Virus record (IMG/VR): IMGVR_UViG_3300025012_000956
Span: 10,538 to 74,537 of that record
Length of the DNA stretch: 64,000 nt
Reading direction: 5' to 3' (one strand)
Origin: a virus
In this document: piece after piece, positions 8,797 to 55,366 of the stretch
Layout: each line of letters begins with the position of its first letter
Position numbering within the stretch: position 1 is the first letter of the stretch
Notes under the pieces: generated by a model
Seen by the model: the letters and a program-made list of their open reading frames with translations, nothing else
Databases searched by the model: none
Told to the model about the DNA's origin: nothing
Position numbers and translations under genes: made by a program

Positions 8797-8905
8797 CTTC
8801 ATAGAAATTCATTTTATATTTATTAATAACAAACCTCACTAAAATAAAAGTTATAAATAAAGTGTATTTTTTTACACTTTTCCTATATATTATAAAGAAC
8901 ATATT

Positions 8906-9067
8906 ATGAAAACAATTAAAATTGATGATCTATCTTATGAAATACTGAAGAAATACTGTAATAAGATTGGATTAAAAATAACTAGATTTGTTTCTAATAT
9001 GATTGTGGAATATATAGAGAAAAAAGATGGAATTAAAATTAATAAGAAAATGTCCGAATCCAAATAA
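8906..9067 (+). CDS. Small ribbon-helix-helix-like protein (53 aa, not in ORF track) overlapping the nuclease gene
   Basis: MKTIKIDDLSYEILKKYCNKIGLKITRFVSNMIVEYIEK: alternating N-terminal strand, helix, GL turn, helix. Similar to the ORFs at 33274, 43028 and 54515. Confidence 0.7.
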   Translation: MKTIKIDDLSYEILKKYCNKIGLKITRFVSNMIVEYIEKKDGIKINKKMSESK

Positions 9068-9875
9068 TAATCCTAGATGTAAATGTATATTAAATTATAC
9101 AACTAAAAAGGGATATCTAGGTGCTTTACGTAGAAATACTATGTGTAAAAGTTGTTCAATGAGTAAATCTCCCAATAAATTAGTCTATGAAAGAATATGT
9201 CCTAATCCTAAAGATAATCCAGGTTGTAGAGTAAATTTAAAATATAAAAGTAAACAAAAATATTATATAGCATTAGAAAAAAATTCTACATGTCATAGTT
9301 GTTGTTCCTATAGTAATGCATATAATATCTGTAGAAAATGTTCAAATGAAACGAAGAAAAAATTATCTATTATATTTAAAGGTAGAAAATTTACTGATGA
9401 GTGGAAAAATAATATTAGAATTGCAAGATTAAAGATGATCGAGTCTGGAAAAAACTTTGGAATGTATGGAAGTAGTATGTATGATAGTTGGTTAATTAAA
9501 TATGGTAAAGAGGAAGCAGATAAAAAACAGATAGAAAAAATAAAGAAAATCAGATTAAAACTTCACACGAGATTGAAGGATAAATTTAATTGTATTAGTC
9601 CAGCATTCTTTAATCCAGAAGCATGCAAAATAATAGATGAATATGGTAAAACTAACGGCTATTCATTCCAACATGCTCTAAACGGTGGAGAATTTTATAT
9701 TAAAGAATTGGGTTATTGGGTAGATGGGTATGATAAAGATAAAAACGTTGTTATAGAAATTGATGAAAAGCATCATTTTGATAAAAATGGAAATTTAAGA
9801 GAATCTGATAGTAATAGACAGGCCGAAATAGAAAATTTACTATGTTGTAAAAAATTCATTAGAGTAAAAATTTAA
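9027..9875 (+). CDS. Zn-finger/NUMOD-type PD-(D/E)XK endonuclease (intact copy of a repeated family)
   Basis: Two RxCPNPxxNPxC repeats and C-terminal [46 protein letters not shown]. Confidence 0.75.
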   Translation: MELKLIRKCPNPNNNPRCKCILNYTTKKGYLGALRRNTMCKSCSMSKSPNKLVYERICPNPKDNPGCRVNLKYKSKQKYYIALEKNSTCHSCCSYSNAYNICRKCSNETKKKLSIIFKGRKFTDEWKNNIRIARLKMIESGKNFGMYGSSMYDSWLIKYGKEEADKKQIEKIKKIRLKLHTRLKDKFNCISPAFFNPEACKIIDEYGKTNGYSFQHALNGGEFYIKELGYWVDGYDKDKNVVIEIDEKHHFDKNGNLRESDSNRQAEIENLLCCKKFIRVKI

Positions 9876-12800
9876 TGTATACGAATATATATTATGATAG
9901 AGAGCGTAATAGAATATCCTTATGGGACGACAAATTTGGATATAGGTCATTCCCATATAAAAAATATGCATATATAGAAGATGCTGAAGGTGACTTTTCT
10001 ACCATCTTTGGTACTAAAGTGAAAAAAATTACAAGTTGGAATAATAATATGGAAGATAAATTATATGAATCAGATTTATCTCCAGAGATGAGAACTTTAA
10101 TAGATGTATATTATGATTCACCTGATAACTTATATCCAGACAATAATATTGTTATATTAGATATTGAAGTTGAGACATCTCATTCGCTACCAGATGTATA
10201 TAAGGCTGAAAATGCTGTTACTGGAATAAGTATTCATGAAAGCAAAAACGATAAATATTATTCTTTTATATTAGATCTTGATAATAAAATAGATGATAGT
10301 AAAATATTTACAGATTCAAAAGGGAATAATGTAATACTTAAAGCTTGTATTTCTGAAAGTCAGATGCTTCAGGAATTCATAAATTTGATAGTATTAATTA
10401 AACCAACAATATTAACAGGATGGAACATAGAATTCTTTGATATACCATATTTAATTAATAGAATAGCAGGTATGTTAGGTGAGGCGATTGTTAAAACATT
10501 GTCACCAATAAATATAATTAGATATTCCGAATTTAAAAAAAGATATATTATAGCAGGAATATCAATTATAGATTATTTAAGTATCTATAAAAAGTTTACA
10601 TTCTCAGAAGAAGCATCATATAGGTTGGATTCAATAGCTAAGAAAGAAATTGGAAGAGGTAAAACTGGATTTGATTGTTCTCTACAAGAATTATATGAAA
10701 AGGATATCCATAAATTTATTGAGTATAATATAAATGATGTTGAATTGGTTTTAGAAATAGATAAAAAGAAAAAATTTATAGATTTAGTAGTAGGTATTTC
10801 TCATAAAGGCAGGATTCCATATGAGGATATATTTTATTCTTCTCGTTATCTAGAAGGTGCAATTTTATGTGATTTAAAATCTAAAAACTTAGTTGCACCA
10901 AATAAACCAAATAGAACTTTAACTAGAGATGTTAGTTTTATAGGTGCATATGTTAAAGATCCAAAAGTAGGATTTCATGAATGGGTGTTTGATTTAGATT
11001 TAACATCTTTATATCCATCAATTATTATGTCACTGAATATATCTCCTGAAACAAAGGTTGGTAAAATATTAGATTGGAATGCAAATGAATTTACAAGTAG
11101 AAAACAGAGAACTTGGAAAGTTTTTAATTTTATAAAAAATGTTGAAGCGGATGTAGATACTAAAGACTTATGGGATTTTTTAGAAGTTTCTAAATATTAT
11201 ATATCATCAAATGGAATTATCTACCAATCAACGCATCAAAGAGAAGGAGTTATTCCGAAAATATTATCTAAGTGGTTCGATGAAAGAGTAGAATATAAAA
11301 ATCTAATGAAGAAATTTGGTAAAGATAATAAAAAAGACAAGTATGATTTCTATGACAGACTCCAAAATATACAAAAAGTATTATTAAATTCACTCTATGG
11401 TGTACTAGGGTTACCTATTTTTAGATTTTATGATTTAGATAATGCCGCATCTGTTACGGAAACAGGTAGATCTATTATAAAATTTTCCGAGAAAAAAGGA
11501 GATGAATATTTTAATAATGTTTTGAAAACTAATAATAATTATTGTTTAGCCGGAGACACCGATTCTGTTGGAAAAGACAGTGTTATTGATACTAATTTAT
11601 ATGGTAAAATTACATTATTACAGTGTTTTGATAACTTAACTATTAGAGGAGAATGCGATATCTATTCCGATATCTCTAACAGAAAATTTATATTCCCAGA
11701 CAATTTAGTTTTACCCTACTATGATGAAGATAATAAAGAAATATCATATGGTAAGGTGAAATATATTGAAAAACACATTATTAACAAGAGAATGTTTAGA
11801 ATTAAAACAAAATCAGGTAAATTTGTAGACATTACAGAAGATCATTCTTTAATGATTTTAGATGAATCGACTAAAAAATTAAAGGAAATCAAACCAAATA
11901 AATTAAAAAAAGGTGATAAAATTATTAAATTAAAGTATGACATAGATGAAGTAGACGAGATTATAGATTTAGGAATAAAGAAAGAAGTTGTTTTTGATGT
12001 GGGCATGGATGATAGTCCACATACGTTTTTTGCAAATAATATTTTAGTACATAATTCAGTATATTTCTCAGCATCTCCATTACTTAAATATTTATATCCT
12101 AATTTGGATTATTCAAATGAAAAACTTGCTACAGATGCAGTATCTCATATAGTTAGTGATGTACAAAAGTATATAAATGATTCATATGATGACTTTGCTA
12201 AAGAAATATTAAATATAACGACAGGACATAGATTTAATATAAAACAAGAATTAATTTGTAAGTCTGGGTTATGGACTGCAAAGAAACGATATGCATTAAA
12301 GGTTGTAAATAGAGAAGGAATATTAGTTGATAAATTAGAAGTTAAGGGATTAGATACTGTGAGGTCTAGTTTTCCTCCAGCATTTAAAGGATTTTTAGAA
12401 AAAATGTTAATATCTATATTAGATAAAGAGTCACAGGATAAAATTGATGATGATATAGTTAAGATGGAAAACAAATTGAATTCATTTACTATAAACGAAG
12501 TATCTAAAAATACCTCAATAACGGATATAGTAAAATATACAGATGAAGTAAGTGGTTATTATGCAGATAGAATATTTTCTGCTATAAAGAAAGCTACTCC
12601 TGCACATGTAAGAGCTGCAATTGCTTTTAATGATTTATTAAAGTATTATGGTTTAGATAATTCTATTAGTCCGATTAAAAATGGAGAAAAGATTAAGTGG
12701 TGTTATCTAAAAAATAATAATTTTGGTTTAGATAAGATTGCATTCAGAGGATATGATGATCCAAAGGAAATTTTAGATTTTGTAAATACATATATTGATA

Positions 12801-12916
12801 GGCAACGTATATATGAAAGTGAATTAAAATCTAAAATAGAAAATATATATGCAGCACTTCAGTGGAAATTTCCAAGTAGATACAAAAAGTTAGCTAAACA
12901 ATTTTTCAATATTTAA
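9875..12916 (+). CDS. Family B DNA polymerase (T4 gp43-like) with intein
   Basis: ExoI DIE, ExoII GWNIEFFDIPY, ExoIII YNINDV, DLTSLYPS, KVLLNSLYG, GDTD|intein|SVY, KKRY. Confidence 0.95.
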   Translation: MYTNIYYDRERNRISLWDDKFGYRSFPYKKYAYIEDAEGDFSTIFGTKVKKITSWNNNMEDKLYESDLSPEMRTLIDVYYDSPDNLYPDNNIVILDIEVETSHSLPDVYKAENAVTGISIHESKNDKYYSFILDLDNKIDDSKIFTDSKGNNVILKACISESQMLQEFINLIVLIKPTILTGWNIEFFDIPYLINRIAGMLGEAIVKTLSPINIIRYSEFKKRYIIAGISIIDYLSIYKKFTFSEEASYRLDSIAKKEIGRGKTGFDCSLQELYEKDIHKFIEYNINDVELVLEIDKKKKFIDLVVGISHKGRIPYEDIFYSSRYLEGAILCDLKSKNLVAPNKPNRTLTRDVSFIGAYVKDPKVGFHEWVFDLDLTSLYPSIIMSLNISPETKVGKILDWNANEFTSRKQRTWKVFNFIKNVEADVDTKDLWDFLEVSKYYISSNGIIYQSTHQREGVIPKILSKWFDERVEYKNLMKKFGKDNKKDKYDFYDRLQNIQKVLLNSLYGVLGLPIFRFYDLDNAASVTETGRSIIKFSEKKGDEYFNNVLKTNNNYCLAGDTDSVGKDSVIDTNLYGKITLLQCFDNLTIRGECDIYSDISNRKFIFPDNLVLPYYDEDNKEISYGKVKYIEKHIINKRMFRIKTKSGKFVDITEDHSLMILDESTKKLKEIKPNKLKKGDKIIKLKYDIDEVDEIIDLGIKKEVVFDVGMDDSPHTFFANNILVHNSVYFSASPLLKYLYPNLDYSNEKLATDAVSHIVSDVQKYINDSYDDFAKEILNITTGHRFNIKQELICKSGLWTAKKRYALKVVNREGILVDKLEVKGLDTVRSSFPPAFKGFLEKMLISILDKESQDKIDDDIVKMENKLNSFTINEVSKNTSITDIVKYTDEVSGYYADRIFSAIKKATPAHVRAAIAFNDLLKYYGLDNSISPIKNGEKIKWCYLKNNNFGLDKIAFRGYDDPKEILDFVNTYIDRQRIYESELKSKIENIYAALQWKFPSRYKKLAKQFFNI
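11564..12055 (+). mobile_element. Contiguous 164-aa mini-intein in the GDTD|S polymerase motif
   Basis: Starts SVGKDSVI, block B DITEDHSL, ends HTFFANNILVHN|S; no endonuclease domain. Confidence 0.92.
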
Positions 12917-12928
12917 TCAGAGGTTATA

Positions 12929-13681: not shown

Positions 13682-13689
13682 GGTGTATA

Positions 13690-14316: not shown

Positions 14317-14373
14317 TTTTATACAAAGTGTGATTTTTCTAGATCATACCTATATATATAATTAAGAAACCTA

Positions 14374-16568: not shown

Positions 16569-16608
16569 TGTTTATTAAAAATGCCAGAAATTTTAAATAT
16601 GATTATCT

Positions 16609-16827: not shown

Positions 16828-16833
16828 GAATAA

Positions 16834-18458: not shown

Positions 18459-18470
18459 GAGGAAAGTTAT

Positions 18471-20170: not shown

Positions 20171-20180
20171 GAGGTATAAT

Positions 20181-31163: not shown

Positions 31164-32505
31164 ACCACTGTTATTATGTATTTCTCCTGTTAGAGCTCGG
31201 GCCGGGTACGGGTCGCATTCTAGAGATATCGTGCGTTCTTTGATTAAATTAAACAAATATGATATTAAAATTTTAAGTATTCGTTGGGGTACAACACCGT
31301 TAAATGTATTAAAACCTGGTATTGATGATGATATTTTAAGTAGACTTCTTTTAAGACCAGAATTATCTAAGAAACCTGAGATAACTGTTCAAATTTCGGT
31401 TCCAAATGAATATAATGGTGACTTAGGTTTGTTTAATATAGGAATAACAGCTGGTGTTGAAACAACAATTTGTTCTCCTCAGTGGTTAGAGGGGTTGAAT
31501 AGAATGAATTTTAATATAGTGCCATCTAAATCTGCTAAAAGCGTATTTGAAAATTCTGTGTATGGTAAAAAAGATCAAATGGGTAATATAGTTTCAGAAC
31601 TTCGATGTCAGAAGCCTATTTATGTTCTATTTGAAGGTGTAGATACAAATGTATTTAAGAGAAACGAAAATATTACTGGAAATATTAAAAGAAAGTTAAA
31701 TGAATTTCCAGAAGATTTTCTTTTCTTATTTGTAGGTCACTGGTTGAATGGTGAATTGGGTGCAGATAGAAAAGATACAGGTATGTTAATTAAAATATTT
31801 TTGGAAACATTTAAGAATAAATTAAATAAACCTGCACTATTACTTAAGACTGGAAATACTTTTTCTTATACTGAAAGACAGGAATTATTAGCTAAAGTTA
31901 ATAGAATAAAAAATGTGATACAGGGGGATTTGCCAAATATATATATACTGTTTGGTGATCTGACTCAAGAAGAAATGAATGATTTGTATAACCATACAAA
32001 AGTCAAAGTTCATATAACATTTACAAAAGGTGAGGGATTTGGACGTCCACTATTAGAGGCTAGTTTAAGTGAGAAACCGATAATCGCTAGTGGGTGGAGT
32101 GGTCATTTAGATTTTTTGCCAAAAGAAAAAGCAATATTATTGCCAGGTACTATATCCCAAGTTCATCCAAGTGCAGTTTGGAATGGAGTTATTGAACCAA
32201 ATTCTCAGTGGTTTAATGTAAATTATTCATATGCTTCTAACATAATGACTGATGTTTGGAAAAATTATCAGAAATATGTACCTATGGCAAAGTTATTAGC
32301 ACAAGAAAACAAAGAAAAATTTTCATTAGATAAGATGGTAGAAGAATTAGATAAATTATTTAATGAACATGTTCCAAAATTCGCAGAACAAAAAACTTTT
32401 AATATTCCACAGTTACCTCGTTTAACACCAATTAAAATAAAAAATGAAGGTAAAGAAGATAATAAGGAAACAGAAGAAATTAAAGAAGTACAAGAAAAAC
32501 AATAA
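31156..32505 (+). CDS. GT-B (GT4-like) glycosyltransferase
   Basis: GYGSHSRD, FLFVGHW..DRK and KGEGFGRPLLEA..PIIASGWSGHLDF. Confidence 0.88.
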   Translation: MNKPLLLCISPVRARAGYGSHSRDIVRSLIKLNKYDIKILSIRWGTTPLNVLKPGIDDDILSRLLLRPELSKKPEITVQISVPNEYNGDLGLFNIGITAGVETTICSPQWLEGLNRMNFNIVPSKSAKSVFENSVYGKKDQMGNIVSELRCQKPIYVLFEGVDTNVFKRNENITGNIKRKLNEFPEDFLFLFVGHWLNGELGADRKDTGMLIKIFLETFKNKLNKPALLLKTGNTFSYTERQELLAKVNRIKNVIQGDLPNIYILFGDLTQEEMNDLYNHTKVKVHITFTKGEGFGRPLLEASLSEKPIIASGWSGHLDFLPKEKAILLPGTISQVHPSAVWNGVIEPNSQWFNVNYSYASNIMTDVWKNYQKYVPMAKLLAQENKEKFSLDKMVEELDKLFNEHVPKFAEQKTFNIPQLPRLTPIKIKNEGKEDNKETEEIKEVQEKQ

Positions 32506-32516
32506 GGAGAACCAAA

Positions 32517-32750
32517 ATGTATTATATTAATAAAGTTACAAAAATGCTGGTCAATGCTAAAAAATATGATCGTGATGATCCAAAAGTTGAAATATTAACT
32601 GAAAATCATTTGGTTACAAAGTCAATAAAAGAAACGCAGTGGTTAGTTATGATATTGGATTCTGATAAAAACGTAAAAGATGTTATTATATTAGAGGATC
32701 AAATATTTAATTCTACCTTTGAACCATTTAAACAGATATTACACGGATAA
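32517..32750 (+). CDS. Hypothetical protein
   Basis: AGGAG RBS; short ORF. Confidence 0.5.
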   Translation: MYYINKVTKMLVNAKKYDRDDPKVEILTENHLVTKSIKETQWLVMILDSDKNVKDVIILEDQIFNSTFEPFKQILHG

Positions 32751-33216: not shown

Positions 33217-33273
33217 TGCTTAAATATTTTATAATTTTTTATAATTTTTTACAATTTCTCTATATTTATTACT

Positions 33274-33444
33274 ATGAAAACAATACAAATAAAAGAAGAA
33301 ACTCATTCAAAATTTAAAGATTATTGTAAACAGAATAATCTTAAAATCAATAGTTTTATTGATACTATCTTAGATGAACATATGGAGAAATTAATTGAAA
33401 AAGAAAAAAGAAGTTTGGACAAGAATTTGCTCAAATCCAAATAA
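33274..33444 (+). CDS. Small RHH-like protein (56 aa, not in ORF track)
   Basis: MKTIQIKEETHSKFKDYCKQNNLKINSFIDTILDEHMEK, a paralogue of 8906-9067. Confidence 0.7.
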   Translation: MKTIQIKEETHSKFKDYCKQNNLKINSFIDTILDEHMEKLIEKEKRSLDKNLLKSK

Positions 33445-34341
33445 TAATTCTAACTGTAAAAAAATAATAAAATGTAAAAAATCTAAATTTTGTACGAATT
33501 GTTCTAAAGTAGGTAAAAATAATCCCAATTTTAGGAAGCATCCGTCTAAAGAAACTATAAGTAAAATGTCTGAGGCCAATAAAGGTAAAAATAATCCATG
33601 GTTTGGTAGACATCGTTCTAAAGAGACTATAGAAAAGATAAGTAAAACCAAAACAGGAAAACACCATTCAGAAGAAGCTAAATCAAAAATGTCTGAGTCA
33701 CATAAAGGGAAACACCTTTCAGAAGAACATAAGAGAAACATATCTAAGGTGCGCAAAGGTAGACATCATTCTGAAGAAACTAAGAAAAAATATCTGAGGC
33801 ACGAAAAGGTAAAATTTTATCTGAAGAAACTAAAAAGAAATTATCTGATGTAAAAAAAGGTAAATCCGGGAACAGATTAGGAATACACCATTCTGATGAA
33901 ACTAAAAGAAAACTATCTGTTGCGCAAAAAGGTAAAAAGAGAAAACCATTTTCAGAAGAACATAAGAAAAAACTATCTGACGTGGCGAAAGGCAGAGCTT
34001 TATCAGATGAACATAAGAGAAAACTAAGAATAGCAGCTATAAAAAGAATAGAAGAAAATAAATTAAATGGTAATCAACTGTGTCCTTCTTACAATCCAAT
34101 AGCATGTAAAACGATAGACGAGTATGGTAAAGCTAACGGATATTCATTCCAGCACGCAGAAAACGGTGGAGAATTTCGTATACTAGAACTCGGTTACTGG
34201 GTAGACGGATATGATAAGACTCGAAACGTGGTAATAGAATATTATGAGAAAGCACATAAAAATAACATCAATAAAGATGAAAGAAGAAAACAAGAAATTA
34301 TTAATTTTTTAAACTGTGAATTTATAGAAATTAAAGAATGA
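33395..34341 (+). pseudogene. NUMOD3-repeat PD-(D/E)XK endonuclease (repeated family), frameshift near 33785-33790
   Basis: RICSNPNNNSNC, many KGKHHSEE repeats and [17 protein letters not shown]; one A is missing in the A6 run. Confidence 0.75.
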
Positions 34342-36864: not shown

Positions 36865-36908
36865 ATTTTTGTTTTACTTTTTTTGTTTTACCTATATTTA
36901 TATATAAG

Positions 36909-37064
36909 ATGGGAAGAAAGAAACTATATATAACACCCAAGGAGATTAAATTGGCCAACACAAAAAAATCTCTTAAATATTATTATAAAAATAGGACTAC
37001 AATAAATAAAAAAAGAATGAAATTGTATTATGAAAGAAAAGATATTTCGAAGAAATTGTCCTAA
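36909..37064 (+). CDS. Small basic protein (51 aa, not in ORF track) overlapping the nuclease gene
   Basis: MGRKKLYITPKEIKLANTKKSLKYYYKNR...; occupies the RHH slot of the cassette, with its start 121 nt before the nuclease ATG. Confidence 0.6.
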   Translation: MGRKKLYITPKEIKLANTKKSLKYYYKNRTTINKKRMKLYYERKDISKKLS

Positions 37065-37646
37065 TCCAGACAATAATCCAAAATGTAAAAAGAAAATTGT
37101 ATATAAAAATAAAAGATATTATATAAATGGACTAAAGAAAAAAACTGTATGTAATAGTTGCCATTGCTATGGTATACATCCTTCTGAAGAAACAATAAAA
37201 AAATAAGCAAAGGTAATTTGGGTGAAAATAATGGAATGTATGGAAAACACCAAAGTATAGAAACTATAGAAAAAATTCGCGCTCGAGCTAAAAAAAGGTT
37301 TGAGGATCCAAAAGAAAGAGAAAAACAGAGACTTACAGCTATAAAAAGAATAGAAAATAATTTATCAATTGGTGGTCAAATTCAACCATGGTTTAATCCC
37401 AGGGGTTGTCAAATAATAGATAACTATGGAAATAAAAATGGCTATAAATTTAAACATGAAATGAACGGAGGCGAAATTTGTATCAGTGGATATTTTCCAG
37501 ATGGATTAGACGAAGAAAGAAAAACAATAATTGAAATAGATGAGAAACACCACTATGATACACATGGTAATTTAAAAAAGAAAGATGTTGATAGACAGAA
37601 ATATCTTGAAGGTTTAGGTTATAAGTTTATTAGAATTAAAATATGA
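37030..37646 (+). pseudogene. PD-(D/E)XK endonuclease (repeated family), frameshift near 37197-37203
   Basis: MKEKIFRRNCPNPDNNPKC from 37030. ATA AAA AAA TAA would read IKKISKGNLGEN with one more A. C-terminal FKHEMNGGE..GYFPDG..IIEIDEKHH. Confidence 0.75.
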
Positions 37647-39765: not shown

Positions 39766-40710
39766 ATGAATAATATAATATGTACGGGGGGTGTGGGATT
39801 TATAGGGTCTCATTTAGTAGAAAGGTTATTAAAAGAAACAGATGCTCCAAAAATATATATTGTCGATAATTTGGTACGGACACATTCGTTGAGGAATATT
39901 CAGTATTTACTATTTGATCCAAGAGTTGAATTCATTTATGGTGATATTTCCACAATTAAATATGAAACCTATTTTAATCCACCTGACATAGATTGGGTTT
40001 TTCATTTAGCTGCAACTCGTATCAACAGATGTAATAGTTATAATTTAGAAGGACATCAATATATTGCAACAGGTGGAGCAAGATTAATAGATTGGGTAAG
40101 TAAATACCATATCAAAATATTTTTTGCGAGTAGTGCAAGTGTGTATCAATCACCAAAAACGTTGCCTATTAAAGAAGAAGATCCTTGCAATCCACACACA
40201 ATATATGGGGCTGGAAAATTATATACTGAAAATTTATTGAGAAGTTATCATATATTATATGGCCTAGAGTATGTAATAAATCGATTTTTTAGCGTATATG
40301 GTGAACGAATTGATTCCGAAGGAAGTTATACTGAAATAATATTTAATTTTTTTAATCAAATAAAAAAAGGAAAAACTGACATAACTTTATATGGAAATCC
40401 AGATGAAAAGATTTTAGATTTAATTTATGTAGATGACGTCGTCAATGCTATTTTATTGACTATGAAAAAATCAAAAAATGATGCATTTAATGTTTCTACT
40501 CAGACTGGGATAACACTCACAGAGTTAGTAAGCTTAATAGAAAGTATAACTAACACTAGATTGAATAAAATAATATTACCAGAGAAAAGAACAGATATAG
40601 AGTTAAAACGAATAGGTGATGTTTATAAATTAAAAAATTTAGGTTGGCAATTAAATACTACAATAGAATCTGGATTAACTAAAACGTGGAATTGGATAAA
40701 AAATTTATGA
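39766..40710 (+). CDS. NAD-dependent NDP-sugar epimerase/dehydratase (extended SDR)
   Basis: TGGVGFIGSH, FHLAA, ASSASVY, YGAGK and DLIYVDD. Confidence 0.9.
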   Translation: MNNIICTGGVGFIGSHLVERLLKETDAPKIYIVDNLVRTHSLRNIQYLLFDPRVEFIYGDISTIKYETYFNPPDIDWVFHLAATRINRCNSYNLEGHQYIATGGARLIDWVSKYHIKIFFASSASVYQSPKTLPIKEEDPCNPHTIYGAGKLYTENLLRSYHILYGLEYVINRFFSVYGERIDSEGSYTEIIFNFFNQIKKGKTDITLYGNPDEKILDLIYVDDVVNAILLTMKKSKNDAFNVSTQTGITLTELVSLIESITNTRLNKIILPEKRTDIELKRIGDVYKLKNLGWQLNTTIESGLTKTWNWIKNL

Positions 40711-41492
40711 AAAAGAAAAAATTTTTTAGGATATGTCCTAAGTGTGGAAATAAAGTTTGGCATACTCAAAAAAACCATAGAAACAGTGCTGATAAAAATA
40801 AAAAAATATGTAATAAATGTTCAACCCGAGGAGAAAAAAACGGATTTTATAATAAAAAACATTCTATAGAAACAATTGAAAAGATATCCATGAATACTAA
40901 GTTGGCTATGAAGAAACCTGAAGTTTTTGAAAAAATTAAAAAATATCACGATGATATTAAAAATAAAACTTATAAGGAAAGATATGGTAAAGAAAAATCA
41001 ATAGAAATTAGAAATAAACAAAGTAAATCAATTAAGGGAATGTTCAGTGGAGATAAACATTATCAATTTGGAAAAAAACAAAGTAGAGAAATTATTGAAA
41101 ATAGAATATTAAAAAATACTGGTAAAAAAAGAACTAAGGAGCAAATAGAAAATATAAGAAATTCATTGGTTGGAAGAACACTTTCTAGGGAACATATAAA
41201 GCGTCTTCGTTTGGCTGTCATAAAAAGAATAGAAGATAGACATGGTACCATATTTCCAAATTATAATATAGAAGCATGCAAAATCATAGAAGAATATGGT
41301 AAAGAAAATGGCTATAATTTACAGCATGCTGAAAATGGTGGAGAATACTACATCAAAGAACTTGGATATTTTTTAGATGGTTATGATAAAAATAAAAATG
41401 TTGTGATAGAATATTATGAAAGACATCACTATACGCTTGGTAATTTAAGAGAAAAAGATTTAAAAAGAAATTATTCAACAACTTGGTTGTAA
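40686..41492 (+). CDS. PD-(D/E)XK endonuclease (repeated family; likely start 40708; C-terminal tail frameshifted near 41465)
   Basis: RICPKCG, NUMOD3 repeats, [26 protein letters not shown]. The tail IIQQLGCKFIRINAFDK continues in another frame. Confidence 0.72.
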   Translation: MELDKKFMKKKKFFRICPKCGNKVWHTQKNHRNSADKNKKICNKCSTRGEKNGFYNKKHSIETIEKISMNTKLAMKKPEVFEKIKKYHDDIKNKTYKERYGKEKSIEIRNKQSKSIKGMFSGDKHYQFGKKQSREIIENRILKNTGKKRTKEQIENIRNSLVGRTLSREHIKRLRLAVIKRIEDRHGTIFPNYNIEACKIIEEYGKENGYNLQHAENGGEYYIKELGYFLDGYDKNKNVVIEYYERHHYTLGNLREKDLKRNYSTTWL

Positions 41493-41545
41493 GTTCATTA
41501 GAATAAATGCGTTTGATAAAAATAATTTAAAGATAGAGGTAATAC

Positions 41546-42004
41546 ATGGATAAGATTTTACCACCTTGGAATGAATTAAAAAACATAGTTGGTAAAAGAT
41601 TTAATGATTTTTGTATTATTAGAGGAGACGAATTTATTGAATGGGGTGATGATGTCTGGGTGGGTTATTTTTGTTTAATTGATGGAAGTGGTGGATTGGA
41701 AATAGGTAACCATGTATCTATTAGTTCAGGAGTTCACATATATACACATTCTAGTGTAGATTTTAGAAGACTAAATTTAAATAAAGATCCTATAAATGGT
41801 ACACACATTAAAAGAGCTCCAGTCAAAATAGGAAATTTTGTCCAAATCGGGGCAAATGCTGTTGTTCTTCCCGGGATAACAATAGGTAACAACGTGATTA
41901 TTGGAGCATTGTCATTAGTTAACAAAGATATACCAGACAACTGTGTTGCATTTGGTATACCAGCTAAAATAAAGGAAACAAATAATAGAGAAACTAAACT
42001 GTAA
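41546..42004 (+). CDS. Hexapeptide-repeat (LbH) acyltransferase
   Basis: IGNHVSIS, PVKIGNFVQIGANAVVLPGITIG and AFGIPAK. Confidence 0.9.
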   Translation: MDKILPPWNELKNIVGKRFNDFCIIRGDEFIEWGDDVWVGYFCLIDGSGGLEIGNHVSISSGVHIYTHSSVDFRRLNLNKDPINGTHIKRAPVKIGNFVQIGANAVVLPGITIGNNVIIGALSLVNKDIPDNCVAFGIPAKIKETNNRETKL

Positions 42005-42063: not shown

Positions 42064-42975
42064 ATGTTGCCTAAAGTGATTCTTTGTGGATTTGGTAGAT
42101 GGGGAAAAATTTGGTTTAACACAATAAAAAAATCAGGTTATCAATGTGTAGGAATAGTAGACCCAAAAATACTCATGACAGAGATAGAAGGAGTTACTGT
42201 TTATAATCGTAGTACTGAGGTACAAAATAGAGAATATACCCATGTTATCTTAGCAACACCACCAGAAACTCATCTTAAATTATTTCAATATTTTTCACAA
42301 AGAATAAATCCGAGAAATATTCTAGTTGAAAAACCTATGGGAATAAGCAGTTCTGAAGCAAGTAAGATGATAAATTGTTTTCCTGGATTAGTATTTCTTT
42401 ATGATCCAATTACTCACTATATTAAAAAAAATATGACTATTATAGGAGAACCACTTTTATATAAATCTACGCGAGCTAGTATGGGTCCAACAATTAGAAG
42501 TGAAATTTCTGTTGTTGAGGATTATTTAATACATGATATTAGTATTTTCATATGGTTATTTTGCAGAAAAATAAAAATTATTAATGCTTTTAAAACTAAT
42601 AAATTTGTTAATGATTCAGTAAAAAATGATACTGTGATTGTTGTAGGTGAATCAAATAACCTTATAATTGATATGTTTAGCTCGTGGATATATCCTATTA
42701 AAGAACGGTCAACTTATATTATAGGGACACGTGGTTCATTTATATGGAAAAATGATGAACTATACTTTGATGATACTCACTATAATTTTGACAATATTTC
42801 TATAGATAGATATAAGTTAATAGTTGGTATCAACAATAAAATAATAATAGATAAAAAATACAGTACTTTAGAACTTCAATTGAAACATTTCATAGAAGAT
42901 AAGAAGATTAATATGAATATTTTAGATATATGGGATACTATTGATGATATAAATATAAAATGTAATTTTTTGTAA
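42064..42975 (+). CDS. Gfo/Idh/MocA-family oxidoreductase
   Basis: GFGRWG, ATPPETH, LVEKP and LIHDI. Confidence 0.85.
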   Translation: MLPKVILCGFGRWGKIWFNTIKKSGYQCVGIVDPKILMTEIEGVTVYNRSTEVQNREYTHVILATPPETHLKLFQYFSQRINPRNILVEKPMGISSSEASKMINCFPGLVFLYDPITHYIKKNMTIIGEPLLYKSTRASMGPTIRSEISVVEDYLIHDISIFIWLFCRKIKIINAFKTNKFVNDSVKNDTVIVVGESNNLIIDMFSSWIYPIKERSTYIIGTRGSFIWKNDELYFDDTHYNFDNISIDRYKLIVGINNKIIIDKKYSTLELQLKHFIEDKKINMNILDIWDTIDDINIKCNFL

Positions 42976-43027
42976 AATACTGGTTACATTTTGAAAAATC
43001 TCTATATTTATATATAAAGGAGTTAAT

Positions 43028-43189
43028 ATGAAATATAAATCAAGACCGATTAGAATAGATGAAGAAGTTTATATTAAGTTAAGAGATTATTGTGATATAA
43101 ATTCTTATAAAATTTCTAGATGGGTTAGTAGAATTTTATTAGAGAAATTAAATGATTTACAAAAGAAAGTGTCCAAACCTAAAAAATAA
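43028..43189 (+). CDS. Small RHH-like protein (53 aa, not in ORF track)
   Basis: MKYKSRPIRIDEEVYIKLRDYCDINSYKISRWVSRILLEKL with an AGGAG RBS. Confidence 0.7.
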   Translation: MKYKSRPIRIDEEVYIKLRDYCDINSYKISRWVSRILLEKLNDLQKKVSKPKK

Positions 43190-43472
43190 TCCAAACTGTA
43201 GGGAGATTATTAGATATATAAGTGAAGGTGGATATTATTACTCGATAAAAAATAATTCTTTCTGTACTAGTTGTAGACACTTTGGAAAACCTGTAGGATT
43301 TAGTGGACACAAACACAAAAAATCTACAATAATTAAAATGAAAAAACCAAAGACACAAGAACACAAAAATAAAATAGGATTAGCATTAAAAGGTAGAAAA
43401 TTTTCTAAAGAACACATTAAGAATTTAAAAATTGGATCTGATAAAAGAATAGGAAAAAGTAGAGAAATGTGA
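43152..43472 (+). pseudogene. Truncated endonuclease (repeated family) lacking the nuclease domain
   Basis: RKCPNLKNNPNC plus NUMOD3-like repeats, then a stop; no FQHAxNGGE domain follows. Confidence 0.7.
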
Positions 43473-48576: not shown

Positions 48577-48580
48577 TGAG

Positions 48581-49513: not shown

Positions 49514-49704
49514 CATATGAATTGTGGGATATTATTGGATTGACAGAAGGAGAAGTAGCTATTCCCTTTACTAGATTATATGAAGATGATTCTTTTATAA
49601 AGGTATATGATAAATTTTTAAAGCATATGCAAAATAATGAGCTCTGTGTTATTATAGTTAATAAAGACGATACTAGTTTAAAATATAAAAGTATATCATT
49701 ATAA
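49510..49704 (+). CDS. Hypothetical protein
   Basis: Short coupled ORF. Confidence 0.4.
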   Translation: MTYELWDIIGLTEGEVAIPFTRLYEDDSFIKVYDKFLKHMQNNELCVIIVNKDDTSLKYKSISL

Positions 49705-49786
49705 TGAGTATAATTTTTAGGTATTAAAGGAGGAAAAGGACTTCATTCGCAGAAATTGATGATGATAAAAAATAAAGGAGAACATA

Positions 49787-50383: not shown

Positions 50384-51540
50384 AAATGAAAATAACAGAT
50401 AAACCAACTGAAACTGTAAAAGGTACACGTGAGCCAGTTAATAATAATCTTAGTACAGGTTTATCTTTTTCATATGATTTTACATCTGATGGTTATTATA
50501 AATTTTTAACAATTGCTTATATTATACAAACAATTATAGATAAATATTTAAATATTACGGTTAAGAATGAACGCAGTTATGAATATAATTATGATTTTAA
50601 CAAATATAAACAAATAGTAATTGAAGGAGACATAATTTTTTATTATAATAAACAATTATTTATTTATAAGATTAGTACAGATGGTTTCAAAAATAAAATA
50701 TTATCTAATGGGTCGACCCATCTATTTGTCAAAATAATTAAAGATGAAATTAAAAATAATAATCCACTTAGAAACAAACATCTATATATATATGATACTA
50801 GTGACTGTTTAGCTGGTACTATTAAAAAAAGACCAACTGTAAATTTTTCAGATGTAATATTAGATGATACCTTAAAGTCTGATATATATGATAATACTAT
50901 ATTTCATTTGGAAAAAATGGTAGAAAATAATGGTATTATATTATTTGGGAAACCAGGTGTTGGTAAATCATTGGTATGTTCTGCTATCATAAATGAGGCT
51001 ATTAATAAGGGTTTTAGTACATGTTATTTGTGTAGTAAGGTAAATTTTGAGTCGCTATCTGAACTTATAAGAGAATTTTTAACTCCTTGTATCTTAATAT
51101 ATGAAGATATAGATTCCTTGGGTCAAGATAGAAAAGAAACTATAAATACAGAATTGTCGTCATTTTTACAATTTATAAATGGATTAACGGAAGGAAATGA
51201 TCGCATTGTATTTATAGCAACAACAAATTATCTAGAACATTTAGATGATGCAATTAAAAATAGACCTATGAGATTTAATAGAAAATTCGAATTTAAATAT
51301 CCCAATAATGATCAAATTAATAAGTTAATAACATTATACTTTGATAAAAAAACAAGTGATAAATATTCTACCACGTGCTATAATAAGAATTTCACTGGAG
51401 CACATATAAAAGAAATAAAAAGAACAGCTACTATTTTATCTGTAAAGGATAACACTGATATAGATAGTGTATTTGAAAAATCGGTAAAATTAGTATATGA
51501 TAACTTTAGCATAACACTAAGAAATAAACCTGGATTTTAA
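50380..51540 (+). CDS. AAA+ ATPase
   Basis: GKPGVGKS, IYEDID, ATTN..LDDA..RP.RF and TGAHI. Confidence 0.88.
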   Translation: MKMKITDKPTETVKGTREPVNNNLSTGLSFSYDFTSDGYYKFLTIAYIIQTIIDKYLNITVKNERSYEYNYDFNKYKQIVIEGDIIFYYNKQLFIYKISTDGFKNKILSNGSTHLFVKIIKDEIKNNNPLRNKHLYIYDTSDCLAGTIKKRPTVNFSDVILDDTLKSDIYDNTIFHLEKMVENNGIILFGKPGVGKSLVCSAIINEAINKGFSTCYLCSKVNFESLSELIREFLTPCILIYEDIDSLGQDRKETINTELSSFLQFINGLTEGNDRIVFIATTNYLEHLDDAIKNRPMRFNRKFEFKYPNNDQINKLITLYFDKKTSDKYSTTCYNKNFTGAHIKEIKRTATILSVKDNTDIDSVFEKSVKLVYDNFSITLRNKPGF

Positions 51541-51542
51541 AT

Positions 51543-52619
51543 ATGAAAACGGAAATAAGTCAATTTACTCCCTGGATAAGGCCTATATATGCACTAAATA
51601 CTACAAAGACTATAATGTCAAGTTTTATTGGTCCTGGAAAAGAAGTAGAAAAGTTTGAACTAAATATATTAAAAACAATCGAACATTCGAATGAATATTG
51701 TATAGCAACTACAAGTGGTACTGTAGCGTTAATAATGGTAATTAAAGCATTAGAATTAAAACCTGGTTCCACTATATTGTTTCCTGCATATACATTTTTA
51801 GCGGGAGCAAATGCTGCTAAGTTTTTAGGATATAATATAAAGCTAATAGATATTGATGAGGATAATTTATGTATGGATCCTAAATTAGTAGAAAAAGAAT
51901 TGAAGGAAATTAAGAATATGAGTGCGATAATATATGTTCATCATAATGCATACGATGGTGGTACAGAGTTAGGAGATATCAATGATTTATGTATAGATTA
52001 TAATATAAAACTTATTCAAGATGCCGCACAATGTATTGATGTTCCAATTCATTTATATGGAGAAATGGCCACTTATTCATTTTCAGTACCAAAGATAGTT
52101 ACCACCGCACAGGGTGGTGCGGTGGTAACTAAAGATGAAAATATATATAACAAGTTAAAACAAATTAGAGATCATGGAGATGATAATTGGAAAAAAACAA
52201 AGCTTCATACAAATTTAGGAGTAAATTTTAAATTTAACGATATTTTAGCCTCATTTGGAAATTCTCAATTCAATCATTTTAATGAAATAATAAAAAAGAA
52301 AGATAATATATTTGAGTGGTATAGAAATCATATTAAAATTAAAGATTTTTTTCAAGAAAGAACTTGGATGGTAATATATGAAAATTCACCTATAATTATA
52401 AATAAAGTAAAAGAACAACTTAAATTGAATAATATAGGTTCTGAACAATATTATAAACCAATTCATTGGAATCCACCATATAAAACAGAGGATAGTTTTC
52501 CAATAGCAGAAAAAATGTATGAAAGGTTATTGTATTTACCATCATCATTAACATTAAATAAATCAGATGTAGATAGAATTTGTAGTATAATAAAGAAAGT
52601 AGAAATAGAAAATGGGTAA
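51543..52619 (+). CDS. DegT/DnrJ family aminotransferase (perosamine-synthase-like)
   Basis: SGTVAL, QDAAQ, SFSVPKIVTTAQGG, NFKFND and LYLPSS. Confidence 0.9.
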   Translation: MKTEISQFTPWIRPIYALNTTKTIMSSFIGPGKEVEKFELNILKTIEHSNEYCIATTSGTVALIMVIKALELKPGSTILFPAYTFLAGANAAKFLGYNIKLIDIDEDNLCMDPKLVEKELKEIKNMSAIIYVHHNAYDGGTELGDINDLCIDYNIKLIQDAAQCIDVPIHLYGEMATYSFSVPKIVTTAQGGAVVTKDENIYNKLKQIRDHGDDNWKKTKLHTNLGVNFKFNDILASFGNSQFNHFNEIIKKKDNIFEWYRNHIKIKDFFQERTWMVIYENSPIIINKVKEQLKLNNIGSEQYYKPIHWNPPYKTEDSFPIAEKMYERLLYLPSSLTLNKSDVDRICSIIKKVEIENG

Positions 52620-52653
52620 AAAAGCCTGGATATCCGGAATCACTTACTTTTAG
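52612..52653 (+). pseudogene. Orphaned original 5' end of gmd (MGKKAWISGIT-YF*)
   Basis: Overlaps the upstream gene's stop; matches the canonical Gmd N-terminus that normally continues GQDGSYL. Confidence 0.7.
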
Positions 52654-52705
52654 TAATATCAGTAAAAAATGCAAAATCTCCATATATATTAATAACAGTG
52701 GAGAT

Positions 52706-53473
52706 ATGCATATGAAACTAAAAGATATTATTATAGAAAAAAATTGTCATCTTGCTTCGTGTAATAAATTATTTTTAACAAATTCTACTAAAAAAGGAAA
52801 AAACAGAAAATATTGTTCTAATATATGTGCGCGTATAGGAAACGGTAGAAATAATAAAGGAAGACACCACACACCTGAAGCAAGAAAGAAAATATCAGAT
52901 GCTATGTCAGGAGAAAAAAATTCTTTTTATGGTAGAAAACACACAGAAGAAGTTAAAAGGAGAATAGGTAAAATAAACAGTGGGACATATGAGGAGAGGT
53001 TTGGAGAAGAAAAATCAAAAGAAATAAAAGCAAAGTTGTCAGATGCACTAAGTGGACAGAATAATCCGTTTTATGGAAAAAAATTAACAAAAGAACATAT
53101 AGAAAAAAGAACAAACACCGTCGTAAATAGAGGTTCTTATAAGGGTGAAAATAATCCTATGTATGGAAAAGGTTATTTGATTTCAGGAGAAAAAAATGGA
53201 GCGTGGCAGGGTGGTAGCTCGTTTGGAGAATATGGATTAGAGTTTACAGATGAACTGAGAACAGAAATAAGAAAGAGAGATAATTTTACATGTCAGGTCT
53301 GTAATAGCAATGGATATACAGTCCATCACATAGATTATATAAAACATCACAACAATAAAAAGAATTTAATCACTACATGCACATCATGTCATGGAAAAAC
53401 TGGATTTAATAGAGACAGTTGGATAAGTTTTTTTAAAACTAGAATACAGGAGATTTATGGAAATACTGAGTAA
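52706..53473 (+). CDS. NUMOD3 + HNH homing endonuclease
   Basis: KYCSNIC, N.FYGRKHTEE repeats and IRKRDNFTCQVC..VHHIDY..NLITTCTSCH. Confidence 0.88.
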   Translation: MHMKLKDIIIEKNCHLASCNKLFLTNSTKKGKNRKYCSNICARIGNGRNNKGRHHTPEARKKISDAMSGEKNSFYGRKHTEEVKRRIGKINSGTYEERFGEEKSKEIKAKLSDALSGQNNPFYGKKLTKEHIEKRTNTVVNRGSYKGENNPMYGKGYLISGEKNGAWQGGSSFGEYGLEFTDELRTEIRKRDNFTCQVCNSNGYTVHHIDYIKHHNNKKNLITTCTSCHGKTGFNRDSWISFFKTRIQEIYGNTE

Positions 53474-54467
53474 AAAAAATAAGAGGCGCGCGTTTCTCAT
53501 GGGGATCGGAGGACAAGATGGAAGTTATCTGTCAGAACATTTATTGGACTTGGACTATGAGGTATATGGAATAATTAGACGTAACTCTGTTTCTGAACAC
53601 CAAGAAAGTAGAATTGCGCATCTTGAAAACAAAATAGAAACTATGTATGGAGATTTATCTGATACAAGTTCTTTAGAGCATTATATTAGAATAATTAAAC
53701 CAGATGAAATTTACAACCTTGCAGCCCAATCCCACGTAAGAATAAGTTTTGATATCCCCCAATATACAGTAGCTACTAATGCGCTTGGAGTCCTAAATAT
53801 TTTAGAAGCTTTCAAAAAATTTGTTCCGGGATCTAGATTTTATCAGGCCTCCAGTTCCGAAATGTTTGGAAATTCTGTAGACTTTGATGGTTTCCAACGA
53901 GAGACAACTCCTATGCATCCCACAAGTCCATACGGGTGCGCAAAGTTATTCGGATATTCTATAGTAAGACACTATAGGCATGCCTATAAATTATTTGCTT
54001 CTAATGGTATTCTGTTTAATCACGAATCAGTTCGAAGAGCATCTAATTTTGTTACTAATAAAGTAGTTAAAGCTGCTGTACAAATTAAGAAAGGATTGTT
54101 AGATAAATTAGAATTAGGAAATATGGATTCTTTTAGAGACTGGGGTCATTCAAAAGATTACGTAAAAGCAATGCATTTAATATTAAATAATTCAGAACCA
54201 GATGATTTTGTAGTTGCAACAGGACAAACTCATTCTGTAAGAGAATTATGCGAATATGTATTTAAGAAATTAGAATTAGATATGAATAAATATATAATCC
54301 AAAATCCGAAATATATTCGTCCAGAAGAACTTAAATACTTACGAGGTGATAGTACTAAGATTAGAACAAAGTTAAATTGGAAACCTGAATACACATTTGA
54401 AACAATATTAAATGAAATGATCCAGTTTTGGATTGACTATTATGAAAAATATAACGATAAAAAATAA
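53457..54467 (+). CDS. gmd: GDP-mannose 4,6-dehydratase
   Basis: GQDGSYL, YNLAAQSHV, FYQASSSEMFG, SPYGCAK, GILFNHES and RDWGH. Confidence 0.95.
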   Translation: MEILSKKNKRRAFLMGIGGQDGSYLSEHLLDLDYEVYGIIRRNSVSEHQESRIAHLENKIETMYGDLSDTSSLEHYIRIIKPDEIYNLAAQSHVRISFDIPQYTVATNALGVLNILEAFKKFVPGSRFYQASSSEMFGNSVDFDGFQRETTPMHPTSPYGCAKLFGYSIVRHYRHAYKLFASNGILFNHESVRRASNFVTNKVVKAAVQIKKGLLDKLELGNMDSFRDWGHSKDYVKAMHLILNNSEPDDFVVATGQTHSVRELCEYVFKKLELDMNKYIIQNPKYIRPEELKYLRGDSTKIRTKLNWKPEYTFETILNEMIQFWIDYYEKYNDKK

Positions 54468-54514
54468 AATTTCCCTATATTTATATATGTAATAATTAAA
54501 CAATGTAATAAATT

Positions 54515-54661
54515 ATGAAAAAACGAGTAACATATTATCTTCCTATTGATTTGATTGAAAAGTTAAAATCTATTCCTAGGAATGAATTACCTAATATTTC
54601 TAAATTAATAGAAAATTTATTGGAGAAATGGTTTGAAAGACGAAATAAGAAGTTGTCCTAA
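54515..54661 (+). CDS. Small RHH-like protein (48 aa, not in ORF track)
   Basis: MKKRVTYYLPIDLIEKLKSI..NISKLIENLLEKW, a CopG-type pattern. Confidence 0.72.
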   Translation: MKKRVTYYLPIDLIEKLKSIPRNELPNISKLIENLLEKWFERRNKKLS

Positions 54662-55366
54662 TTCTAAACACAATTCTAATTGTAGAAAAACATTAAAATG
54701 TAAAACGAGTAAATTGTGCACATCATGTGCTAGGAAAAAATATGATTATACTGTGCCATATGTGTCAGTTTGTAAAGAATGTGGAAAAGAAAAAACATTT
54801 AAATTAGAAAAACAAAAAATTAAATGGAAAAAAAATCGCTATGTAGATCTTGTGTAATTAAAGGTGGAAATAATCCAATGTTTGGTAAACACCATTCAGA
54901 AGAAGCTAAAATAGAAATGTCTAAAGGAAAAAAAGGTAAAATTAGAAAACCATTTTCTAAAGAAACAAAAAGAAAGATGTCTGAGGCACATAAAGGTGAA
55001 AATAATCCCATGTTTGGTAAACATCATTCTGAAGAAACCAGAAGAAAAATGAGACTATCAGCTATTAAAAGAATAGAACAAAACAACCTAGATGGTAACC
55101 AACTGTGTCCTGCTTATAATCCGAAATCAATTCCTATCATAGAAGAATATGGTAAAATTAACGGTTATAACTTTCAACATGCAGAAAATGGCGGAGAATA
55201 TAATATTAAGAAACTTGGGTACTGGGTAGATGGATATGATAAGACTAGGAACACTATTATAGAAATTTATGAAAAATTTCATAAACGGTGTGCTGAAAGA
55301 GATGGAAAAAGAAAACAAGAAATAATTAATTTTTTAAAATGCAAGTTTGTAGAAATTTATATATGA
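54633..55366 (+). pseudogene. PD-(D/E)XK endonuclease (repeated family), frameshift near the A8 run at 54828-54835
   Basis: RSCPNSKHNSNC (54633 ORF) plus NUMOD3 and [17 protein letters not shown] (54824 ORF). Confidence 0.75.

Follow-up and report, generated by a model that had tools for sequence, protein, structure and literature searches.

The stretch analysed here (the window) comprises 64,000 nucleotides, positions 10,538 to 74,537 of the IMG/VR virus record IMGVR_UViG_3300025012_000956, a 74.5-kb viral contig with an estimated completeness of 37%. The window has a G+C content of 26-30% and all of its genes lie on the + strand. At five loci, set among phage replication and sugar-metabolism genes, a promoter-like motif precedes a small open reading frame (ORF) of 48-56 amino acids (aa) whose 3' end is overlapped by a nuclease gene. 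We call this arrangement a cassette. Four of the small ORFs encode ribbon-helix-helix (RHH) proteins and the fifth belongs to a second, unrelated family.

Five overlapping gene pairs and their nucleases

The features of the five cassettes, in order along the window, are:

8859-8880, no strand: cassette 1 inverted repeat AAAGTGTA-T6-TACACTTT, 2 nt before the promoter motif; candidate operator
8883-8891, + strand: cassette 1 promoter-like motif CTATATATT, one mismatch from CTATATWTA
8906-9067, + strand: cassette 1 RHH gene, 53 aa
9027-9875, + strand: cassette 1 Vsr-like homing endonuclease, 282 aa, ATG start, the sole intact copy; two CPNP zinc ribbons, NUMOD3, C-terminal nuclease domain
33227-33246, no strand: cassette 2 tandem repeat, two copies of TTTTATAATT; core TTATAA-N4-TTATA kept in the related cassette L037
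33260-33268, + strand: cassette 2 promoter-like motif CTATATTTA; the ATG follows 5 nt later
33274-33444, + strand: cassette 2 RHH gene, 56 aa
33395-34341, + strand: cassette 2 Vsr-like endonuclease gene, TTG start; frame disrupted where the A-run at 33785-33790 is 1 nt short
36866-36891, no strand: cassette 3 direct repeat, two copies of TTTTTGTTTTAC, abutting the promoter motif; a layout common to cassettes of the MGRKK family
36892-36900, + strand: cassette 3 promoter-like motif
36909-37064, + strand: cassette 3 basic protein, 51 aa, of the MGRKKxY...YY.KN...YYE family, not RHH
37030-37646, + strand: cassette 3 Vsr-like endonuclease gene, ATG within the YE codons of the small ORF; frame disrupted where the A-run at 37197-37203 is 1 nt short
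42972-42987: cassette 4 imperfect GTAA-N8-TTAC element, upstream of the promoter motif
43002-43010, + strand: cassette 4 promoter-like motif
43028-43189, + strand: cassette 4 RHH gene, 53 aa, sharing 62-71% identity with its L028 and L035 counterparts
43152-43472, + strand: cassette 4 nuclease remnant, 106 aa, ATG start, without the catalytic domain
54475-54483, + strand: cassette 5 promoter-like motif
54487-54511, no strand: cassette 5 direct repeat ATGTAATAA-N7-ATGTAATAA, located after the promoter motif and ahead of the ATG
54515-54661, + strand: cassette 5 RHH gene, 48 aa
54633-55366, + strand: cassette 5 Vsr-like endonuclease gene, TTG start; frame disrupted where the A-run at 54828-54835 is 1 nt short

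The small ORFs, nuclease starts, offsets and reading frame given in the original prediction, which was made from this DNA alone, all hold. The nuclease starts lie 121, 121, 121, 124 and 118 nt from the respective small-ORF starts, in every case 1 mod 3, i.e., in the +1 frame, and each small ORF does stop within the R.C(P/S)N...N..C codons that encode the first zinc ribbon of the nuclease. The Lys/Ser-rich tail and the stop codon of the small proteins are thus a by-product of reading the nuclease CPNPNNN codons one base out of frame. In all eight of the RHH cassettes compared, here and at loci in other viral contigs (designated by L numbers; L082, L080 and L029 were excluded), the LEK codons of RHH helix 2 contain the Shine-Dalgarno sequence of the nuclease, GGAGAAA or GAGAAA, 6-8 nt ahead of the nuclease start codon. 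The motif CTATATWTA said to precede each cassette is present at all five, except that the copy at 8883 carries the mismatch noted above.

The nucleases belong to a known family, the free-standing Vsr-like (I-Bth0305I-type) homing endonucleases. Their building blocks are CPNP-type zinc ribbons (at least one), NUMOD3 repeats and a domain at the C-terminus, the last of which matches Pfam DUF559 (E 4e-6) and MTES_1575. The best Foldseek matches to an AlphaFold model of this domain (predicted local distance difference test score, pLDDT, 91) were RAP-domain proteins, I-Bth0305I (3R3P, probability 0.99) and Vsr, with weak E-values (0.02-0.9), and searches with the nuclease sequence and profile matched no solved structure, 3R3P included. 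Taken together, the Pfam, AlphaFold and Foldseek results place the catalytic domain in the Vsr-type PD-(D/E)xK fold. In the nuclease alignment (A6) GGE, Y and E are invariant and D, E, H and R nearly so; the NUMOD3 repeats and shared C-terminal GGE...DG.D...E.DE..H domain described earlier are confirmed. The proposal that the cassettes are mobile homing-endonuclease elements is likewise supported. A further nuclease of the same family at 812-1663 lies between split-intein halves, and the cassettes have differing neighbourhoods among related contigs.

The five nuclease starts were correctly predicted; the copies at 33395, 37030 and 54633 are not single ORFs. Each is one A short in an A-run, so that a -1 shift is needed to read through, and a copy at 40686 has one A too many. 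About seven disruptions are concentrated in the 9.9 kb occupied by endonuclease genes; the other genes, 54 kb with 35 A-runs of at least 7, show no evident disruption, and on this ground we reject sequencing error as the cause. The A-run at 33785-33790 is identical in the sole listed contig that spans it, from a run that is possibly this DNA's own source, and no indels were reported at the A-runs covered by contigs of the other three runs. Programmed frameshifting within the nucleases is unlikely, the A-runs being out of phase for a canonical slippery heptamer and the relative in L027 being broken by a stop codon; the same gene is intact in L028. Most nuclease bodies of the window are undergoing the ordinary decay of homing endonuclease genes after fixation, while the small genes are still intact.

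Two families of small proteins and their linkage to nucleases

The small ORFs at 8906, 33274, 43028 and 54515 encode Arc/CopG-type RHH proteins by both profile and fold, confirming what had been read from their sequence pattern. All four match Arc-like repressor PHROG families (down to E 7e-6), and the RHH profile matches SvtR (PDB 2KEL, E 4e-6), then ParG, CopG and CcdA. The AlphaFold monomer (pLDDT 80) has an extended N-terminal strand followed by two helices, and every top Foldseek match to it is an RHH protein, the antitoxins MazE, KacA, AtaR and ParD among them. An N-terminal strand and two helices within ~45 residues are found in these four proteins, to the exclusion of that at 36909. 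Cassette RHHs are 48-59 aa long, with ~10 residues after helix 2 that are set by the overlapping nuclease codons.

The antitoxin matches, together with an antitoxin-like order in which a small RHH gene comes first and overlaps a potentially toxic nuclease, could be taken to mean that the RHH neutralises the nuclease by direct binding and represses the operon, making the cassette addictive in the manner of a toxin-antitoxin (TA) pair. This is very improbable. The RHHs have no toxin-binding extension, their few residues past the fold being dictated by nuclease codons; the partner nucleases are of unrelated folds; no PADLOC or TA family was matched beyond marginal PADLOC hits to a restriction enzyme model and a homing endonuclease model; and many relatives lack the RHH entirely.

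Complete cassettes, with motif, RHH gene and +1-frame overlapping nuclease gene, also occur in other viral contigs, with the nuclease start at nt 118-130. The pairing thus recurs across phages, in contigs where the nuclease is intact. Together with two related arrangements, these are:

L028/L033: RHH cassette, offset 121, intact 232-aa nuclease
L035: RHH cassette, offset 130, 318-aa nuclease
L037: RHH cassette, offset 127, 298-aa nuclease
L082: RHH cassette, offset 118
L029: related RHH-nuclease pair with an ATGA overlap
L036: RHH heading a SegE-like GIY-YIG endonuclease gene, offset 136

The four RHHs of the window are mutually 25-40% identical. Two are closer to RHHs of other contigs, that at 33274 being 55% identical to its counterpart in L037 and that at 43028 sharing 62-71% with those of L028 and L035. 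The cassette copies are therefore old lineages common to phages rather than the product of a recent burst, and the earlier suggestion that the element had spread within one genome is not supported. The nuclease C-terminal domains, unlike the RHHs, group by genome, which points to exchange of heads and bodies between cassettes. Two database proteins, P0005 and P0007, are close relatives of the RHHs at 33274 and 54515; scans of viral contigs with RHH 33274 and with the helicase at 7195 gave no matches. Separately, P0006, from an ENA contig of 1088 nt, is a 95-aa protein whose first 43 residues are identical to RHH 33274 and are followed by a GatB/YqeY-like segment (PF02637); assembly chimerism would account for it, or else the RHH head has here been joined to a different gene.

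The protein at 36909 had been set apart as an unrelated basic peptide. It is indeed not an RHH, but it is no stray: it represents a widespread second family in the same slot. Homologues occupy this slot, at the same 121-nt offset, before Vsr-like genes in L063, L096, L110 and L120, and a profile search retrieved 104 protein clusters (E <= 1e-3; 44-67 aa), none of them annotated. The proteins of this MGRKK family are basic and two-helical, with an AT-hook-like start. Their profile had no match in Pfam, PHROGs or the PDB, the peptide had none in GenBank phages, and matches in the ESM Atlas were to unnamed small proteins only, with an AT-hook cluster at 0.88.

When 57 MGRKK loci were fetched from viral contigs by the small ORF alone, at least 40 had an endonuclease-type gene directly downstream. 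These genes were Vsr-like (7, by hidden Markov model), HNH (13), GIY-YIG or NUMOD-bearing (~17) and LAGLIDADG (1), and a DUF723/treble-clef type was also seen. The nuclease ATG lies inside the conserved YYE codons, at nt 121 or, in the GIY-YIG type, nt 97, again in the +1 frame. A few MGRKK copies precede a methyltransferase gene, a helicase gene or a nuclease stub (L159, L160, L163; the stub, in L151, is 47 aa) and look like heads left after the body was lost. In L172 the order is MGRKK ORF, HNH gene and gp41-like helicase gene, and in L163 and L169 a more distant small ORF stands directly before the helicase gene; this head may have been kept or taken over after loss of the endonuclease.

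That four endonuclease classes join the MGRKK ORF at the same codon, and that some copies have no endonuclease downstream or precede the methyltransferase and helicase genes just mentioned, would also be expected if the small gene were a landing pad, i.e., a conserved small phage gene outside the mobile unit and targeted by many endonucleases. We think this quite unlikely. Several divergent copies lie in a single genome, where both the adjoining endonuclease gene and the surroundings differ from copy to copy, and independent insertions would not yield an identical out-of-frame 40-nt overlap with the ATG in conserved codons. Moreover, the endonuclease-less copies have the appearance of leftovers, as the stub in L151 and the gene order of L172 compared with that of L163 illustrate.

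Both families are under purifying selection: the ratio of nonsynonymous to synonymous substitution rates (dN/dS), over the part of the small ORF outside the overlap, is 0.22 for an RHH pair and 0.03-0.21 for MGRKK pairs. These values bear on whether the small ORFs are translational leaders, the act of translation itself tuning nuclease initiation, or are joined to the nuclease by a programmed +1 frameshift. In favour of this, the small ORF does contain the Shine-Dalgarno sequence and start codon of the nuclease, and the +1 frame of the overlap is invariable. Conservation at the amino-acid level, recognisable folds, nuclease start codons of their own and the lack of any conserved slippery site seen in the overlaps nevertheless make this the least credible of the readings considered.

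Not every nuclease of this type has a small partner. The endonucleases of L025, L026 and L032 stand alone, as does the sixth nuclease of the window. The latter had been described as partner-less and placed at 40708; it does lack a partner, its gene spans 40686-41553, and it is not the last, since the nuclease at 812-1663 makes a seventh. The two genes are:

40686-41553, + strand: partner-less Vsr-like endonuclease gene, without its own promoter, overlapping the upstream gene; +1 shift at 41462-41466
534-1663, + strand: seventh Vsr-like endonuclease gene (nuclease ORF 812-1663), promoter motif at 502, between the split-intein halves of a helicase gene

The same site, upstream of an acetyltransferase gene, holds the partner-less endonuclease 40686 here and the RHH-headed cassette L037 in the related contig G002. 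Some relatives have an in-frame N-terminal helix-turn-helix (HTH) domain in the position of the small protein. Relatedly, in L030 (490-1092) a relative of the CPNP-ribbon endonucleases is preceded by an 88-aa protein that ends 1 nt before the nuclease start; this protein has, by eye, the look of a sigma-70 region 4-type HTH and may be a third kind of small DNA-binding partner.

Promoter motif, repeats and proposed control of the cassettes

The motif CTATATWTA is enriched in the window, with 19 matches against 9.2 expected. When the variant CTATATATT is allowed, the motif occurs eleven times in a short gap between genes, immediately ahead of a first ORF, and six of these copies precede genes that have no small partner: the Vsr-like 534/812, NUMOD3 3762, TnsA-like 14374, GIY-YIG 59997 and HNH 63360 genes and a gene of unknown function at 6545. 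Because it precedes partner-less endonuclease genes too, the motif is not private to the cassettes, and its proposed role as a cassette-specific signal or operator is not upheld. Its position, strand and enrichment instead predict a class of promoter that almost every endonuclease gene of this phage uses. In many cassettes (L126-L146 and others, and 33260-33276 in the window) the small-ORF ATG stands 5-8 nt past this -10-like motif with no Shine-Dalgarno sequence, a spacing that suggests leaderless or nearly leaderless transcripts.

Beside the motif, most cassettes carry repeats that differ from one element to another. A repeat of at least 8 nt occurs within 70 nt upstream in 11 of 15 cassettes compared with 22% of shuffled sequences, and one of at least 9 nt in 66% of 35 distinct MGRKK upstream regions compared with 7.7% of shuffles and 2.4% of random windows. 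The MGRKK layout consists of two identical 9-14-nt units, separated by a short T-run and abutting the promoter-like ATATTTAT. The unit changes with the MGRKK subgroup, being CTTTTAGTT with WAKEYYHRN proteins, TGTTATYAY with ARKYYLKN, TTTGTTAG with WSKKYYWKN and TTGTTTTAC in the window; within a subgroup it is identical across HNH, Vsr-like, GIY-YIG-like and LAGLIDADG bodies. RHH subgroups likewise keep their own repeats, inverted or direct, across phages: TTATAA-N4-TTATA for 33274 and L037, GTAAT-N6-ATTAC for L028 and L035, and a 28-bp palindrome for L036. Since the repeats track the small-protein subgroup and not the nuclease class, they fit a cognate regulator-operator pair rather than recognition by the nuclease.

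We infer from the sequence that the small proteins bind these repeats, and likewise the sign of regulation, the transcription start and the activity of the promoter. On balance we favour the view that the homing endonuclease gene at each locus brings along a 5' control module, composed of promoter, operator-like repeats and a small DNA-binding regulator that most likely acts as a negative autoregulator. The module would comprise a phage promoter, an element-specific repeat pair, the gene for a ~50-aa DNA-binding protein (RHH or MGRKK) and, embedded in that gene, the Shine-Dalgarno sequence and start of the nuclease. The small protein would be made first, from a bicistronic and often nearly leaderless transcript, would bind its own repeats and would set the level or timing of cassette transcription, most likely holding nuclease dosage low by negative autoregulation; the embedded translation signals would tie the two genes together. 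Autoregulation receives indirect support from the element-specific repeats beside the promoter, which change with the small-protein subgroup. By analogy with Arc in IS605 elements and with I-TevI acting on itself, repression would be the most likely outcome of binding.

Several observations weigh against this view. The repeats are heterogeneous, being inverted or direct and upstream or, in cassette 5, downstream of the motif; in a few cases they are weak, as in cassette 4 and L028, or absent; and two of the six partner-less promoters also carry 9-nt inverted repeats. Co-variation of repeat and protein is confounded by shared descent, and the AT-rich sequence calls for further caution. Only ~15-20% of sampled Vsr-like endonuclease genes have either small partner, so the module is optional. 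The promoter assignment follows from position, strand and enrichment; a scan for sigma-70 promoters and terminators was uninformative in such AT-rich DNA (73 sigma-70 promoters found, 77 expected), and no RNA sequencing run was among those listed as containing the window DNA. Finally, one protein, L073/P0112, joins the MGRKK N-terminal part in frame to a Vsr-like nuclease, and this fusion would also fit the small protein being a DNA-binding part of the enzyme.

In that case the small protein would be a detached DNA-binding or targeting subunit, or a homing helper, that binds the nuclease or the target or donor DNA and shapes cleavage specificity or repair instead of transcription. The L073 fusion, a Rosetta stone of sorts, and the relatives with an HTH domain in the same place speak for such a role, as do the modularity of homing endonucleases and a tight overlap that guarantees co-expression. 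We nonetheless consider it unlikely: L073 is the sole fusion among 5.8 billion proteins searched for longer forms, one small-protein subgroup with its repeats serves four unrelated nuclease folds, making a specific protein-protein fit improbable, the nucleases already have zinc ribbons and NUMOD modules, and the repeats are located at the cassette's own promoter.

To a similar degree we doubt that the small protein is a positive regulator or timer that activates a weak cassette promoter, as the C proteins of restriction-modification (R-M) systems do at low dose. In its favour, activators of promoters without a -35 element bind at about -15 to -45, which is where the repeat pair is situated, and C proteins both activate and repress. 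On the other hand, small stand-alone RHHs (Arc, CopG, omega, IS605 Arc) have proved to be repressors in almost every case studied, the same motif serves partner-less endonuclease genes without such a factor, and the repeats of cassette 5, downstream of the motif, are positioned to block transcription.

The module is portable: across many uncultured phages the same heads are found with nuclease bodies of more than one catalytic class. A stronger version, which we find plausible but hold at somewhat under even chances, is that the head (promoter, tandem operator and RHH or MGRKK gene) recombines freely with HNH, GIY-YIG, LAGLIDADG and Vsr-like bodies, outlives them, and may act in trans, for example by silencing newly arriving copies that share its operator, or be co-opted to express a neighbouring phage gene.

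Genomic context and comparison with known systems

DNA near-identical to the window is present in groundwater, soil and sediment metagenomes (13 studies). GenBank phages hold none, and their matches to the nuclease number six, all distant (Lak and other huge phages). The contig is rich in selfish elements, with three split-intein 'fractured' genes that contain endonuclease inserts, HNH and GIY-YIG genes, and the seven Vsr-like nuclease genes. One fractured gene is the helicase, divided into 1-486 and 1653-2114 with the endonuclease gene 534-1663 between; the latter seems continuous via a -1 shift near 665-671, in which case the 45-aa ORF at 534-671 is its N-terminus and not a partner gene. The family-B DNA polymerase at 9875-12916, as read from its translation, has an apparent ~150-aa mini-intein without an endonuclease domain in its DTDS motif (AGDTD | SVGKDS...LVHN | SVYF). 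The GIY-YIG gene at 59997-60770 has the same promoter motif (59966) and two frameshifts, and stands beside a tRNA-Glu gene at the edge of a nine-tRNA cluster (59847-63928). An HNH and NUMOD3 endonuclease gene (52706-53473) lies directly upstream of, and overlaps, a GDP-mannose dehydratase gene (53457-54467) in a sugar-biosynthesis cluster.

Contigs from two independent runs join across 183 nt (32493-32677) inside a 77-aa ORF (32517-32750), a population variant without that segment, and contig ends at 33220 and 40726 are variant junctions. Cassette-free alleles were sought in contigs from four runs, which paralogous repeats left too fragmented to show them. Five related contigs hold no orthologue of gene 37643, and the orthologous oxidoreductase/DegT junction in G002 is occupied by a different 140-aa gene and is not an empty site.

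The avoidance of harm by homing endonucleases is usually explained gene by gene, through promoter choice, RNA hairpins or the self-repression of I-TevI. If our view is correct, a dedicated and exchangeable regulator module would be a general answer to the problem of harm to the carrier, and would explain the swapping of nuclease classes at a fixed junction. An uncharacterised small-protein family of more than 100 clusters would gain a concrete and testable role, and natural regulator-operator pairs (~50 aa, 9-12 bp) might find use as compact, orthogonal switches. Many phage endonuclease genes are headed by this overlapping gene, which recurs yet escapes standard annotation.

The nuclease family, fractured genes and self-carried promoters are already known. 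The two-part design is widespread in uncultured phages and apparently undescribed: in the literature searched, we found no overlapping small regulator gene, of two unrelated families and across nuclease classes, heading homing endonuclease genes, save for a passing remark on Arc genes beside homing endonuclease genes (bioRxiv 10.64898/2026.09.24.754181). The premise that classical homing endonucleases have no separate repressor gene is qualified by that 2026 preprint as regards neighbouring Arc genes.

The closest relatives of the nucleases are the Vsr-like, I-Bth0305I-type homing endonucleases of phage fractured genes (Dassa et al. 2009, PMC2677866; Taylor et al. 2011, PMC3239194). Both groups are lodged between or inside conserved phage genes, including split-intein halves (812-1663 in the window), and in both the gene comes with a promoter-like element of its own and runs into the gene that follows. 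The controls described in those two papers are promoters and hairpins that sequester the ribosome-binding site, whereas here a separate gene for a small DNA-binding protein overlaps the nuclease start; the terms 'ribbon' and 'small ORF' are absent from PMC2677866.

The nearest parallel to the small gene is the Arc RHH protein that represses promoters of IS605 elements encoding TnpB (bioRxiv 10.64898/2026.09.24.754181). There too a selfish element carries a tiny RHH gene beside a nuclease gene, and IS605 Arc binds and represses the element's own promoter. In contrast, the cassettes, known here from sequence, lack TnpA, TnpB and transposon ends, their nuclease is a protein-only homing endonuclease encoded on the same strand in an overlapping gene, and a second, non-RHH family fills the same slot. 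I-TevI of phage T4 represses its own promoter through an operator that overlaps the gene's late promoter (Edgell et al. 2004, reviewed in PMC2988022). Expression of a homing endonuclease is thereby limited by a protein at an operator of its own promoter, as we propose for the cassettes; the T4 endonuclease represses itself, whereas the proposed repressor here is the product of a separate gene that is interchangeable among nuclease classes.

With type II TA operons that have RHH antitoxins, the cassettes share gene order, overlap and the RHH fold of the first gene, and differ in having no toxin-neutralising tail, no known TA toxin family, nucleases of unrelated folds and an optional partner. 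The C proteins of R-M systems are HTH proteins and operate with a protecting methyltransferase. Their operons resemble the cassettes in placing a small regulator gene directly upstream of a co-transcribed nuclease gene, with repeated boxes at the regulator's own promoter. The analogies to TA and R-M operons drawn in the original prediction thus fail on the defining features of each: in place of an HTH C protein the regulator is an RHH or basic two-helix protein, none of the five cassettes includes a methyltransferase gene, and the nuclease is a homing enzyme.

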